Shown here piece after piece: positions 56,277 to 60,435 of a DNA stretch of 64,000 nucleotides. Numbering within the stretch: the stretch's first letter is position 1; each line of letters begins with the position of its first letter. Under the pieces are notes generated by a model. That model was not told the DNA's origin and made no database searches. It was given only the letters and a program-made list of their open reading frames with translations. Source of the DNA: an uncultured bacterium (GTDB lineage: Bacteria; Cyanobacteriota; Vampirovibrionia; Gastranaerophilales; Gastranaerophilaceae). The stretch lies in assembly GCA_902798645.1 (NCBI GenBank), contig CADBXV010000002.1:12600-76599 (forward strand), written 5' to 3'. Made by a program: the position numbers and the translations under genes.

Positions 56277-57602
56277 TTTTGTACACTCTAAAGCAACATC
56301 TGTTACAAAATCCATGTCATCTTTTTCGATAATTAAAGGCGGATTAAAGTAAATGACATCACCCAACGGTCTTAAGATAACCCCTTTTTCTAATGCTTTT
56401 TTATAAATCTGGTATCCCGTTCGCTTTGTATAGTCCAAAGGTTCTTTTGTACTCTTATCTTTTACAAGTTCTATTGCATTAACTAAACCGATTGAACGAA
56501 CTTCCCCAACATTTTCAAGCGGTAAAAATTTTTCTTTGATTATTTTATTAAAATATTTTGCCTTCTCTACTGCACGAGGGATTATTTCTTCTTCTTTCAA
56601 AATATTCAAAACCTCAATTCCGGCTGAACATGCAAGCGGATTTCCTGCGTATGTATGAGAGTGCATGAAAGCTTTACCCTTTAGATAATCATCATAAAAA
56701 GCATCATAAATTTCTTGAGTTGTTACGCAAACCGACATCGGCATATATCCACCGGTTAAACCTTTTGAAAGACACATTATATCAGGACTAACACCTGCAT
56801 GGTCAAAGGCAAAAAACTTACCCGTTCTTCCGTATCCTGTTGCAATTTCATCAGCTATCAAATGTACGTTATACTTGTCGCACAATTCTCTTAATTTCTT
56901 CAAATAAAGAGGCGGATAGACTTTCATTCCTGCGGAGCCTTGAAGCAAAGGTTCAACAATAATAGCTGCAGTTTCATCAGCATATTTTTTGAATGCTTCT
57001 TCTGCTTTTACAAAACATTCACAGTTACAGCAATCCTTGCACTTTCCCCACTGACAACGATAACAGTCAATTCCTTCTATTCTTATTACATCTAAAAGCA
57101 ATGGTTTATAAAGCTCGGAGTACAAATCAACTCCGCCGACTGCTAATGCTCCAAGCGTTTCCCCATGATAAGCATCAGCAAGCGCCATAAATCTTTTCTT
57201 TTGAGGATTCCCTGTTTGATAATGATATTGAAAACTCATCTTTAAAGCCATTTCAATTGCAGCGGAGCCGTTATCTGCAAAATTAAATTTGCATAAACCT
57301 TTAGGCAAAACCTCCATTAATTTTTGGCAGAGAGTTATTGCAGTTTTATGGGTAAAATTAGCAAAAATAACATGTTCTAATGTATCAACCTGCTTTTTTA
57401 TTGCTTGATTAATTCTTGGATGACAATGACCGAGAAGATTGCACCACCAAGAGCTTATTACATCTTTATAGCATTTACCGTTTATGTCATACAAATTAAT
57501 ACCCTTGCCGCTTTCAATTACAATTGGCGGAAGTGTTTCGTAATCTTTCATCTGTGAACAAGGATGCCATATATATTTCAAATCTTCTTTTTGCCAGTCC
57601 AT
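56262..57602 (-). CDS. bioA: adenosylmethionine--8-amino-7-oxononanoate transaminase
   Basis: Class III aminotransferase; W.PC.Q, SGSAAIE-like, DEIATGYGRTGK.FA, and the PLP lysine in LSKGLTGGY. Confidence 0.85.
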   Translation of the reverse strand: MDWQKEDLKYIWHPCSQMKDYETLPPIVIESGKGINLYDINGKCYKDVISSWWCNLLGHCHPRINQAIKKQVDTLEHVIFANFTHKTAITLCQKLMEVLPKGLCKFNFADNGSAAIEMALKMSFQYHYQTGNPQKKRFMALADAYHGETLGALAVGGVDLYSELYKPLLLDVIRIEGIDCYRCQWGKCKDCCNCECFVKAEEAFKKYADETAAIIVEPLLQGSAGMKVYPPLYLKKLRELCDKYNVHLIADEIATGYGRTGKFFAFDHAGVSPDIMCLSKGLTGGYMPMSVCVTTQEIYDAFYDDYLKGKAFMHSHTYAGNPLACSAGIEVLNILKEEEIIPRAVEKAKYFNKIIKEKFLPLENVGEVRSIGLVNAIELVKDKSTKEPLDYTKRTGYQIYKKALEKGVILRPLGDVIYFNPPLIIEKDDMDFVTDVALECTKVFVR

Positions 57603-57631: not shown

Positions 57632-58462
57632 TCAACCTAACATGGCGACATTTGTTTTTCCGAATTTTGCAGAAAGATCATCTATATGGTGAACCAGATA
57701 CAAAATCGGCTCAATATCTTTTTCGTTAAGATCAATAATTGCTCCCCAATCGGCTCTTGCGTGATGAGCGGCTATCATTCTTGCCACACGTTTAAACCCT
57801 GCATTCATACATACACTAAAACCGTATTGAGAATGAGTTATCCATTCTTTTCTAAATTCTTCGTTATAGTCAATCAAACCTGATTCAAGATTAACAGTAT
57901 ATTCAAAAACCTTACCTATATCGTGTAAAAGACACGCAGCATATACTTCATCCTTATTAACTCTTTGAAAAAACATTTCAAACATTGTATCTGCATATCT
58001 TAAGCACTCGTGAGTATGCACCATCAATCCTCCGATATAATTATGATGCATTAATTTTGCAGCCGGAGCTGTTAGGATTTTTTCTTTATTTTCCGCATAA
58101 ATATCTGAAACAAATTTTTTAAGCTTTTCATCTTTAATTTTATTTATATATTGAACTAAAGCTTGATACTCTTCTTCTCTTTCACTTTCTTCCAAGCCGG
58201 TTTTAGCTTCTTTAATAAGTTCAAGAGCTTGTATTAGACAATTATTATATTTTTCATTAAAAGACCCCGATACTATCCTGAGTTGATTTCCTGAACGGAA
58301 TAATTTTGAATCCATTCTGTTTAAAGCTTCTTCCCACAGAATACAATTCAAAAATTCATCATTTTCCAAGTCTTTTAACTGAAGTTTACCCATTTTCGTT
58401 CCTGATTTTGTATCCCCGATAGAAAATGTTACAACTTCATAAATAATATCCGTACTAAACAT
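57632..58462 (-). CDS. OB-fold plus HD-domain protein, YhaM-like 3'-5' exoribonuclease family
   Basis: N-terminal OB-like region, HHNYIGGLMVHTHE and LLHDIGK HD motifs. Confidence 0.55.
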   Translation of the reverse strand: MFSTDIIYEVVTFSIGDTKSGTKMGKLQLKDLENDEFLNCILWEEALNRMDSKLFRSGNQLRIVSGSFNEKYNNCLIQALELIKEAKTGLEESEREEEYQALVQYINKIKDEKLKKFVSDIYAENKEKILTAPAAKLMHHNYIGGLMVHTHECLRYADTMFEMFFQRVNKDEVYAACLLHDIGKVFEYTVNLESGLIDYNEEFRKEWITHSQYGFSVCMNAGFKRVARMIAAHHARADWGAIIDLNEKDIEPILYLVHHIDDLSAKFGKTNVAMLG

Positions 58463-58493
58463 TTAAACTCCTTATTTTTATTAAATTATATCA

Positions 58494-58529
58494 TAAAAAA
58501 GAATTGAATCTTTATTTGATCCAATTCTT
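58494..58529 (-). terminator. intrinsic terminator about 20 nt upstream of the yhaM-like RBS
   Basis: Minus strand reads AAGAATTGGATC-aaataaa-GATTCAATTCTTTTTT; the RBS AAGGAG and the ATG follow. Confidence 0.6.
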
Positions 58530-58741
58530 TCTTCCTCTCTCCTAACAGCTATTGTCTATACTCATCTCTTTTCAATAGCATTTCCCTATTAATCTCTGCC
58601 GCTATGACAAATGCCATTTCCGTATGGCACCGCATAACCTTATACACCGTTTAACAGACATTTCCTTATGCCTTTTAAGAAGATTCATACTTTCGGATAG
58701 TTGTTGTTTCAATCAAATAACCCTTACGTTATAAACACATG
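58530..58741 (-). ncRNA. candidate cis-regulatory leader or sRNA of unknown class
   Basis: Minus-strand promoter TTTACA (58771-58776), 17-nt spacer, TATAAA (58748-58753); purine-rich transcript with three ATA-N-GGAAATG repeats, two of them in hairpin loops; ends at the terminator 58494..58529. Confidence 0.35.
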
Positions 58742-58765
58742 AGTATATTTATACTCTAAATAACT

Positions 58766-58825
58766 GCAATTGTAAATATAATGGTCAACTATCTTTACAA
58801 TTGCTTACAATTATTACCTTGTAAG
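58766..58825. promoter_or_regulatory. two inverted repeats built from TTGTAA/TTACAA half-sites in a divergent promoter region
   Basis: GCAATTGTAAA-N17-TTTACAATTGC (58766-58804) encloses a TATAAT box (58777-58782); CTTACAA-N8-TTGTAAG (58804-58825). Confidence 0.5.
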
Positions 58826-58866
58826 AGAATTTTAATTTTGTCAGCTTGTTTTATTATGCTTATACT

Positions 58867-60435
58867 ATGACTAACGAATTCCATACAGAATACCAATATG
58901 ACCGCTGTACTTCAAGAGGAATATGTTCTATTAATCCTACAACTTCTTCATTACTGGAGGTTATTCTTTTATATCTTAGGCACGCTGCTTATTACGGACT
59001 GCAATTTGAAAAAAAAGGGATTAAAAATAAAATCATCAGAAATTTAATTTTAAACACGCTCTCAATTTTAAGTTCTAATTATGAGATTTCTGAAAGAAAT
59101 TTTGAAATAATAAATTCCGCATTTCAAAAGGAATTACCTGTAATATTAAAAGAATACAAAGAGTCCTTCGATAATAAGCAATTGCTTGAAACAGAAAAAC
59201 TGTTAAATTCAGCTAAAACAATAAACGAGTATATACGTTTTGGGGAAAAAGAATTCAACAAAAGAATTCGAAATATGGAAGCAAAAGACAGAAACCTGTA
59301 CAGAATATTGTTTATACTGACGAAAAGTTTGTGTGTAAACATTTTGACTTATGAAAGTTTCGGGCAAGATGCCGAAGAAGAAATTCTTTCTGCATTTGAA
59401 GTTTTAGACTTGTTAAATTCTGTACAAAAAAACAGAGAAAACATAAAAGAGTTTATTTCTAATATTGCAAAAAAAGATTGTGAGTTAATGAAAAATATTC
59501 GTTTAATTCAAGAAAAAGAATACGGAAAACAAGAAGAATGTGAAGTATCGTTTTCAACCCAAAAAAGTAAAGCTGTTTTAGTTGTCGGTACAAATTTAAA
59601 AGAACTTGAAAAAATATTAGACGAATTTCAAGAAAAAGACATAGATATTTATACTCATGATAATATGATTCTGGCTCACACTTTTCCGAAATTAAGAAAA
59701 TATAAAAATTTAAAAGGACAATTCGGTCAAGGAATGGAAAATTGCCTCTTAGACTTTTCAACATTTCCCGGTCCTATTATTCTTACAAGAAATTCACTGT
59801 TTAATATAGAAAATTTATACCGAGGACGTCTGTTCACAACTGATTTTGCATATTCAAAAGGTGTAATTCCAATAAAAAATAATGATTATTCCGGTGTAAT
59901 TATTTCAGCAGAAGAATCAAAAGGATTTAAAACCGGAAAAACCTGCCCTAAAGAAAAGATAGGTTTTTCTTTAGAATCTGCATTAAATACAATTAACAAA
60001 AAACTGGAAAATAAAAACTTTGAACAAATTATTCTTATAGGAATTGACGGATATTCAATAGAAGAAAAAGAATACTTCAAAACTTTATTGCAGCGAATTC
60101 CGCAAAATATATTGATAATATCTCTTTCCTGCTGCCAATCAAAAGATAACATTATTTGTTTGAATGCGTCTTTTGACAATACAAGTATGATTAGACTAAC
60201 AGAGGAGATTACAAAAATTACGAAGAAAAAGATGACACTGTTCTTTCCGTACTCTGACAGACATACGCTGTCTTCCATACTGTATTTGAGTAGAATTAAT
60301 ACAAATAAAACATTTGTGGGAAAATGGAATCAAACAATTATAAATCCTAATATTATGAAAGGACTCAAAGAAGATTTTAACATTTTAGAACTTTCTACAC
60401 CAAAAAATGACCTTGATTGCATAACAAACAGTTAA
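58867..60435 (+). CDS. hybrid-cluster protein (Hcp/prismane) homologue lacking most cluster ligands
   Basis: KAVLVVGTNLKELEKIL..IDIYTHDNMILAH..KYKNLKGQFG....FPGPIILTRNS aligns residue-for-residue with the Hcp core K.ILISGHDLKDL..VYTHGEMLPAH..KFKHLVGNYG....FPGPIVMTSNC; start taken as the ATG at 58867 (the track uses the TTG at 58846). Confidence 0.7.
   Translation: MTNEFHTEYQYDRCTSRGICSINPTTSSLLEVILLYLRHAAYYGLQFEKKGIKNKIIRNLILNTLSILSSNYEISERNFEIINSAFQKELPVILKEYKESFDNKQLLETEKLLNSAKTINEYIRFGEKEFNKRIRNMEAKDRNLYRILFILTKSLCVNILTYESFGQDAEEEILSAFEVLDLLNSVQKNRENIKEFISNIAKKDCELMKNIRLIQEKEYGKQEECEVSFSTQKSKAVLVVGTNLKELEKILDEFQEKDIDIYTHDNMILAHTFPKLRKYKNLKGQFGQGMENCLLDFSTFPGPIILTRNSLFNIENLYRGRLFTTDFAYSKGVIPIKNNDYSGVIISAEESKGFKTGKTCPKEKIGFSLESALNTINKKLENKNFEQIILIGIDGYSIEEKEYFKTLLQRIPQNILIISLSCCQSKDNIICLNASFDNTSMIRLTEEITKITKKKMTLFFPYSDRHTLSSILYLSRINTNKTFVGKWNQTIINPNIMKGLKEDFNILELSTPKNDLDCITNS

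Follow-up and report, generated by a model that had tools for sequence, protein, structure and literature searches.

A predicted stand-alone RNA gene of Gastranaerophilales that may derive from a small-protein transcription unit

Here, we studied a structured RNA encoded at positions 58495-58741 of a 64-kb stretch of DNA (the window) from an uncultured bacterium of the Gastranaerophilaceae (contig CADBXV010000002.1). The RNA is followed by a yhaM-like HD/OB-fold gene (the HD gene) and by bioA, all three being read on the minus strand. All coordinates are positions in the window, and L-numbers (L005, L184 and so on) denote related loci that were compared with it. Our analysis points to a stand-alone small non-coding RNA gene of about 247 nt, measured from the predicted start to the end of the U-tract, which has its own promoter and terminator and derives from the messenger RNA of a small protein; we hold this reading to be moderately probable. 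Comparison of the related loci indicates that the RNA is genuine and structured, that it belongs to no described class, and that it is restricted to one Gastranaerophilales clade from rumen and gut. Its apparent origin from a protein gene is the most interesting aspect of this real, new and narrowly distributed RNA. A sequence-only reading of the same region had proposed a leader, either a riboswitch or an attenuator, of a yhaM-like/bioA operon.

Conservation, structure and transcription signals of the RNA

Relatives of the HD protein are found in Gastranaerophilales/Melainabacteria metagenome-assembled genomes from rumen and gut. Orthologues of the RNA were collected from the HD-upstream regions of close species and by a metagenome scan with CTATCCGAAA-N5-AATCTTC, followed by an nhmmer profile search. 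Further contigs encoding the HD protein yielded just close variants of L013. The resulting alignment (A2) holds 14 distinct RNA sequences, namely 13 orthologues and the window copy, and within the window the profile of these 14 RNAs had a single match, 58741-58495 (E = 4.5e-55). Sixty-seven of the 242 columns were invariant and 92 were at least 90% conserved. The mean pairwise identity within the RNA clade was 67.5%, compared with 45% at the 4-fold sites of the adjacent HD gene (random, 31%). We regard the RNA as being under purifying selection.

No Rfam 15 family matched the window at its gathering score, which agrees with the earlier statement that the RNA fits no known class. Even at E <= 10, the best scores between 58300 and 59000 were 15-19 bits against thresholds of 42-186. 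Over the 13 orthologous loci the sole match was a tRNA elsewhere, and positions 2140-2500 of L005 gave nothing near threshold at E <= 10. A literature search on riboswitches, small RNAs or CsrA in Melainabacteria/Gastranaerophilales found nothing relevant.

The sequence-only reading had suggested that homologous intergenic regions be collected and tested for covariation; with 14 sequences, one helix was found to covary strongly. The RNAalifold consensus on A2 comprises the helices P1, P2 (which encloses P2a), P3 and P4, and the terminator. The strongly covarying helix is P3 (58601-58638, minus strand), a long hairpin GUUAUG...UGCCAU-ACGGAA-AUGGCA...CAUAGC in which compensatory changes were observed in 12 of the 14 pairs. 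For the whole predicted structure, 94.5% of cells were paired, compared with 41-59% when the partners were slid by 1-3 columns, and its covariation score was reached by none of 500 shuffles. The minus strand is taken as the RNA strand because of the G.U pairs and the U-tract.

The other helices vary in how they are conserved. P4 (58548-58579, minus strand; helix 5 of RNAalifold) pairs GCUAUUG with CAAUAGC around an 18-nt purine-rich loop; a G-C to A-U change is seen in L013 and L130, and the helix covaries less than P3. P2 (58639-58685, minus strand; helix 2 of RNAalifold) is formed by AAUCUUCU and AUAAG in the window, where the consensus is CUUCU/AGAAG, and the window copy contains a C.U mismatch that results from a private G-to-U change. 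The enclosed variable hairpin P2a (58673-58656, minus strand; AGGCAU-AAGGAA-AUGUCU) is kept though its stem sequences differ between species. P1 is a predicted long-range helix, CUAUCC/GGAGAG. Its proposed 5' strand lies in the block CUAUCCGAAA (58691-58700, minus strand), which is invariant in all 14 RNAs, and its proposed 3' strand is GGAGAG (58542-58537) within the invariant purine tract UAGGAGAGAGGAAGAAAG (58527-58544, minus strand), which resembles a Shine-Dalgarno (SD) sequence. Both P1 strands are invariant, so that covariation neither supports nor refutes the pairing, and the same holds for P2. Part of the tract, AGGAGAGAG, is kept in nearly all members, including a truncated variant in L012 that lacks CUAUCC. 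The junction J3/4 (58580-58600, minus strand) has the consensus AGCAGGGAGUAUAAAAGGGAAAA and is divergent in the window (GGCAGAGAUUAAUAGGGAAAU); it holds four of the seven substitutions private to the window copy, and several relatives carry an extra hairpin here.

Three further pairings were considered and rejected. A closing helix between the 5' end and the P4 loop (GUUUAU/AUAAAC) shifts its register among species and is unsupported by RNAalifold, L007, L011, L013 and the window do not keep a pseudoknot GUAUAA/UUAUAC that would join J3/4 to the 5' region, and pairing of a relic SD sequence AAGGG with UAUCC amounts to 2-4 unconserved base pairs.

The truncated L012 variant (about 2290-2470 of that locus, some 170 nt) has a promoter, a GUGUGUUUAUUA 5' end and AAUCAGGAGAGAG, together with a P4-like hairpin ACUUUUG/CAAAAGU and a covarying terminator GAGAAUUAAAC/GUUUAAUUCUC. 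It is without CUAUCCGAAA, P2 and P3.

Much attention had been given to a repeated motif, ATANGGAAATG (ATA-N-GGAAATG, plus-strand form), which is found at 58579, 58615 and 58659 but not in the rest of the 64 kb. Its expected count is 0.31, and three copies were reached in none of 100 shuffles. Counted along the transcript, the first copy lies in P2a, the second in the loop of P3 and the third arises from J3/4. In the minimum free energy (MFE) fold of the window copy, which is more stable than shuffles (z = -3.3), all three copies are in hairpin loops, so that their presence and looped position hold for this sequence; however, none of the 80 other species examined carries the exact triple motif in front of its HD gene. 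The third copy and its hairpin AAUAG/CUAUU belong to this species only, being produced by substitutions private to the window copy, and this hairpin competes with the conserved P4 pairing. Despite the absence of the triple motif, the whole RNA region aligns in the closest species.

Direct reading of the minus strand bore out what had been said of the promoter, its spacer, the terminator, the ribosome-binding site (RBS) and the purine richness. The promoter is of sigma-70 type (58748-58776, minus strand), with a -35 hexamer TTTACA at 58776-58771, a 17-nt spacer and a -10 hexamer TATAAA at 58753-58748, and it is kept in the orthologues as ATATATTTACA-N17-TATAAG/A. The transcript is predicted to start near 58741, and it consists of 60% purines, with a GC content of 34%. 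It would end at an intrinsic terminator (58495-58533, minus strand), an AT-rich stem of about 12-16 bp with a loop AAAUAAA and U6 at 58500-58495; the hairpin at 58533-58501 has 16-nt arms that are 88% complementary, a 7-nt loop and a folding energy of -15.8 kcal/mol. The terminator core GAAUUGA/UCAAUUC is invariant across the RNA clade. The RBS of the HD gene, AAGGAG at 58473-58468, lies 21 nt past the U-tract. A consensus scanner flagged neither the promoter nor the terminator of the RNA, in both cases for technical reasons: it demanded a T at position 6 of the second hexamer, which TATAAA does not have, and its terminator search gave no site in the AT-rich RNA region.

An operator-like element (58766-58810, strand not assigned) is situated between the RNA promoter and a divergent Prismane (hybrid-cluster-like) gene, which starts near 58867 and is separated from the HD gene by a 404-nt intergenic region. 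The element consists of direct TGTAA repeats with 11-nt spacing and an inverted repeat TTGTAAAGATA...TATATTTACAA. This inverted repeat, TGTAAA-N17-TTTACA (15 nt, 93% complementary), overlaps the -35 hexamer of the RNA promoter. The RNA clade keeps the element, and the related clade that carries a protein gene at this place keeps part of it, as AATGTAAA-N17-TTGACA at an equal distance from the -35. The palindromic and direct TGTAA repeats suggest that transcription of the RNA is controlled by some DNA-binding protein, for which the element is probably an operator.

We considered a BirA operator of the bioO type, an inverted repeat TGTAAACC/GGTTTACA with about 14-16 bp between the 8-mers, to which the window offers TGTAAAGA-N13-TATTTACA. 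This is unlikely, because species that have no bioA close by carry the same element in front of the RNA or of the small-protein gene. The spacing in E. coli bioO is about N20 and differs from that of the window element, a comparison that serves as a lead and not as a test.

The Prismane-like gene itself was given 522 aa by the gene callers, with an ATG at 58867 and no SD sequence. A good promoter-like sequence in the stretch 58838-58869 (TTGTCA-17-TATACT, 10/12) extends to the base that precedes this ATG, which casts doubt on one of the two, the start codon or the assignment of the promoter.

A small-protein gene in the same position

Upstream of the HD gene, the place of the RNA is held in 28 of 80 species by a small gene of about 105-120 aa, as counted by tblastn with the L020 protein. 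The family comprises L020 (about 1940-2270) and 27 other loci, for example L014, L026, L040, L057 and L077. Its proteins begin with M(K/R)(I/V)xAI(R/Q)NY and have two Gly-rich hydrophobic segments, as in a membrane protein, and no Pfam family matches them.

The transcription unit of this gene is similar to that of the RNA at both ends. Its promoter, TTGACA-17-TAATGT, has the geometry of the RNA promoter, with AATGTAAA 17 nt further upstream, and the distance from the -35 to CTATCCGAAA is 72-81 nt in the small-protein gene versus 69-76 nt in the RNA. Both share the 5' sequence GUGUGUU...AGAGGG..., and the small-protein gene ends at the same terminator, GAAGAAUUGAA...UUCAAUUCUUUUUU, after which the same HD promoter follows. 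The block CUAUCCGAAA corresponds to codons 5-8 (A-I-R-N; GCT ATC CGA AAT) of the small-protein gene. In the protein clade, the nucleotides GCT ATC C(G/A)A themselves are conserved to an unusual degree, and synonymous variants are few. The position of the ancestral AUG is AUU in most members of the RNA clade, including the window, and is otherwise disrupted. With the L020 query, neither the RNA clade nor the window showed any similarity to the small protein by tblastn.

In a neighbour-joining tree of the HD proteins, the RNA bearers and the truncated L012 form one clade. Protein bearers stand on both sides of it, with L043 and L047 nearby. It is therefore most parsimonious that the small-protein transcription unit turned into an RNA gene in one lineage. 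In such a conversion, the promoter geometry, the first 60 nt or so (including CUAUCCGAAA) and the terminator would have been retained, and the start codon and coding sequence would have been lost, with a folded core substituted for them. In the new core, the proposed P1 may close a junction from which P2/P2a, P3 and P4 emerge and whose nucleotides are highly conserved.

If this is correct, orthologous loci document how a small-protein unit was recycled into an RNA gene with its promoter, 5' end and terminator retained. It would also add a structured non-coding RNA candidate from the Melainabacteria, non-photosynthetic relatives of cyanobacteria, of which we found no published description.

Neighbouring genes and alternative readings

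The HD gene (57632-58462, minus strand, ATG at 58462) encodes an HD domain (PF01966). Two nt past the U-tract, and thus outside the RNA, begins an extended -10 element TGATATAAT (TGnTATAAT; 58485-58493, minus strand). In 68 of 81 species, TGnTAnAAT was found at a distance of 15-50 nt before the HD ATG, compared with 0.9% of background windows. It is kept with or without the RNA, including in species with only about 100 nt between the divergent Prismane gene and the HD gene. Because this element is conserved past the terminator, the HD gene would have its own promoter there, which implies a very short 5' untranslated region (UTR) of about 16 nt. We propose that transcription of the RNA would begin at its operator-flanked sigma-70 promoter and stop at its intrinsic terminator, and that the HD gene would be transcribed separately from its own extended -10. 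We infer a discrete small RNA (sRNA) of about 250 nt that acts in trans. If so, the arrangement of promoter, structured RNA, terminator and gene can come from two adjacent independent transcription units.

A broader possibility, to which we give a minor share of probability, is that the protein gene became an RNA of a new class that binds a ligand or a protein. Such an RNA may act in trans as an aptamer or decoy, or may, like a riboswitch, let regulated read-through reach the YhaM-like HD/OB nuclease gene in addition to transcription from that gene's constitutive promoter.

The RNA may instead be a cis-acting leader of the HD/OB-fold gene, that is, a riboswitch or a protein-dependent attenuator, where a ligand or protein at the junction core would decide between a stop at 58495 and read-through into the HD gene and, here, bioA. 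The RNA does look like an aptamer: it has helices that covary and differ in length, junction nucleotides that do not change, and an intrinsic terminator. Moreover, the HD gene comes next in 13 of the 14 members, whatever gene lies on the upstream side (Prismane, UDG or others). However, the predicted HD promoter, which we regard as decisive for the reading of the RNA, speaks against a leader, and several further observations agree with it. The terminator predates the RNA, since it ends the protein gene in sister species. No conserved antiterminator was detected when the terminator halves were compared with the upstream sequence by RNAduplex in 14 species; the best partners of the terminator 5' half differ by species and reach -3 to -9 kcal/mol, versus -10 to -18 kcal/mol for the terminator, and the terminator shares no nucleotides with the proposed 3' strand of P1. 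In L184 (544-792), the RNA and its terminator are followed by a convergent pheS, with a flagellin gene 3.4 kb away and no HD gene on the 13-kb locus; this is the sole RNA copy found that is not followed by the HD gene.

The biotin connection depends on bioA (56262-57602, minus strand). The aminotransferase downstream of the HD gene is indeed BioA (TIGR00508, 551 bits versus a cut-off of 405) and starts 29 nt after the HD stop, as had been assumed. It stands alone, with no other bio genes nearby. However, bioA adjoins the HD gene here and in the strain-level relatives L001 and L004, but in 0 of the 88 other loci; its position looks like a recent insertion or rearrangement. Elsewhere, the HD gene is followed by unrelated genes, often convergent, for an LTxxQ-motif protein, a deoC-like protein, recN, ribD, a PHP-domain protein or Aminotran_4, so the consistent downstream class (biotin synthesis) that characterizes a riboswitch leader was not found. 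The link to biotin thus appears to be an accident of this genome, with no comparative support for biotin as a ligand, and a tempting biotin-riboswitch lead would be removed. Because of the HD gene's own promoter, the non-adjacency of bioA, the lack of an antiterminator, the L184 copy and the older terminator, the RNA is probably not a leader or riboswitch of the HD and bioA genes and is simply a neighbour of the former; we consider the cis reading, which had been put forward from the sequence, to be unlikely.

Two side observations concern the region in front of the HD gene. In L206 (about 1120-1185), where the upstream gene is proS, five tandem GGGGTAAAT repeats lie just upstream of the HD promoter. 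In L006 (about 2400-2490), and also in L008, L153 and L109, hairpin-prone insertions of 40-90 nt, such as GTCATTGCGAGACGCGG...CGTCGTAGCAATCTCAC, are located between the HD promoter and the RBS, and these may be small repeat elements.

As for how a stand-alone sRNA could work, our best guess is that it may serve as a decoy or binding platform, in which the ANGGA-type loops and the SD-like UAGGAGAGAGGAAG would be bound by a protein that recognises GGA or SD sequences, for example one of CsrA or ANTAR type, or by a pyrimidine-rich RNA. This specific mechanism is tentative at best. The features most likely to be important are the junction strands GAAA...AAU and AGCAGGGAGUAUAAAAGGGAAAA, the tract UAGGAGAGAGGAAG, and the ANGGA loops of P3 and P2a. 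The P3 loops are of ANGGA type in about 9 of the 14 RNAs and the P2a loops of AAGGA type in 4-5; A-x-x-G-x-x hexaloops are present in 7 of the 14 P2a loops, and several members have loops without G.

A more specific version is a sponge for CsrA/RsmA or for another GGA-binding protein, an idea that had already been raised from the sequence. The site pattern of RsmE/CsrA is an ANGGAN hexaloop, and the window loops AAGGAA and ACGGAA fit it. The recurrence of ANGGA-type loops among the orthologues and the invariance of the block UAGGAGAGAGGA are consistent with a sponge, as is the number of GGA triplets over the 14 RNAs (87 observed versus about 62 expected, the sequences not being independent). 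However, the loops are unconserved in at least 5 of the 14 (for example, AUUAAA, AGUAUG and UUUUUAU), and the 11-nt motif is species-specific. Each RNA contains 3-10 GGA compared with 2.7-6.2 expected, and most are within about 1-2 standard deviations of composition-matched shuffles, a mild enrichment. The check for csrA that had been suggested gave no CsrA signature in six-frame translations of the 64-kb window or of about 90 related loci, which are a small part of any genome and no proof of absence. Thus, the recurring loops keep the idea alive, but a sponge seems improbable to us.

Several points weigh against the stand-alone sRNA. Promoter, start site and termination were all read from the sequence alone. 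In 13 of the 14 distinct members the HD gene comes directly after the RNA and is read in the same direction, as a cis relation would have it, and the single exception, L184, is one metagenomic contig. Because P1 and P2 are invariant, the multi-way junction is a prediction only; constraining the fold to the consensus gives the MFE in L007 but costs 6-19 kcal/mol relative to the MFE in the four other sequences tested. A search of the window for a trans target of CUAUCCGAAA (complement TTTCGGATAG) gave matches at chance level only, no binding protein or trans target was identified, and the csrA result above, for the small genome fraction covered, points the same way. Finally, the window copy is the most derived, with its seven private substitutions falling at otherwise invariant columns, and the RNA could be drifting in this particular genome.

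Another explanation is that the RNA is a functionless remnant, a decaying pseudogene of the small membrane-protein gene with incidental hairpins. The orthologous position, the AUU or disrupted start, the truncation in L012 and the private substitutions of the window copy would all suit it. Against this, the conservation is far above that of the near-saturated synonymous sites of the flanking gene, which makes a decaying pseudogene very unlikely. The 67 invariant columns include former third-codon positions, and P3 is maintained by compensatory changes. Because the RNA has no residual similarity to the ancestral coding sequence and is conserved, its interior appears to be new constrained sequence and not eroded coding sequence. 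The comparison of conservation largely refutes a remnant, to which we give only a slight chance.

The RNA has no conserved open reading frame (ORF) and, by its pattern of variation, is not protein-coding. A micro-peptide gene, either a leader peptide or a shortened ancestral protein, is the least credible explanation: an ATG-started MNLL ORF of 26-39 aa occurs in the window (MNLLKRHKEMSVKRCIRLCGAIRKWHLS; MNLLKR..., 28 aa), L005, L006, L009 and L010, and the ancestral frame (ACU AUC CGA...; TIRKYESS in one form) reads TIR(K/N)x(E/K)SS in all 14, but the MNLL ORF and its start are lost in L007, L011 and L013, the frames diverge after about 10 codons elsewhere, the ancestral frame is without a canonical start in 6 of 14 and has variable stops and in-frame stops just upstream, and the variation falls in a contiguous 5-nt linker and not at third-codon positions.

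Comparison with known systems

Terminator riboswitches of low-GC bacteria share with this RNA the covarying stems of variable length, the invariant junctions, the optional hairpins and the terminator before a gene. However, the RNA differs from them in matching no Rfam class, in lacking an antiterminator, in the independent promoter predicted before the gene, and in its inconsistent, non-metabolic downstream context. A T-box reading fails on a defining feature of that class.

The RNA resembles CsrB/RsmZ in having GGA in small hairpin loops (the ANGGAN hexaloops of the window), in its purine richness and in its own promoter and terminator. It is unlike them in its few sites, semi-conserved loops and weak enrichment, and in that no csrA was seen in the accessible DNA.

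EutX/Rli55-type sRNAs carry ANTAR decoy hairpins. Like them, the RNA is a terminated sRNA with two hexaloop hairpins that have A at position 1 and G at position 4 (AAGGAA, ACGGAA). An ANTAR decoy was rejected: instead of forming a tight tandem pair, the two hairpins are separated by about 26 nt, and the terminator is more than 100 nt away from them; there was no Rfam ANTAR match at E <= 10, and no ANTAR protein was identified.

Type III toxin-antitoxin systems (ToxI/ToxN) are arranged in the order promoter, RNA repeats, terminator and gene. The window likewise has a promoter, a motif repeated at 36- and 44-nt spacing, a terminator and a protein gene. This candidate was also rejected. The repeats have cores of only 12-16 nt, and it is an 11-nt motif that recurs, not whole tandem units of about 34-37 nt; they are absent in relatives. 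In place of a ToxN/AbiQ-type toxin, the downstream gene encodes a conserved, housekeeping-like HD/OB protein (PF01966) that is present with or without the RNA.

The nearest likeness is to dual-function and mRNA-derived sRNAs, such as SgrS/SgrT, RNAIII/hld and SR1/SR1P. Some lineages lose the ORF of such an sRNA while the RNA persists. The RNA studied here is like them in having its own promoter and terminator, and in that a small-protein mRNA and an RNA are the same or orthologous molecules, which is a likeness of genes and sequence. It is unlike them in that the whole coding sequence seems to have been replaced by a multi-helix core and not merely inactivated. By analogy, its closest functional counterpart would be a terminated bacterial sRNA that stems from a coding transcript.

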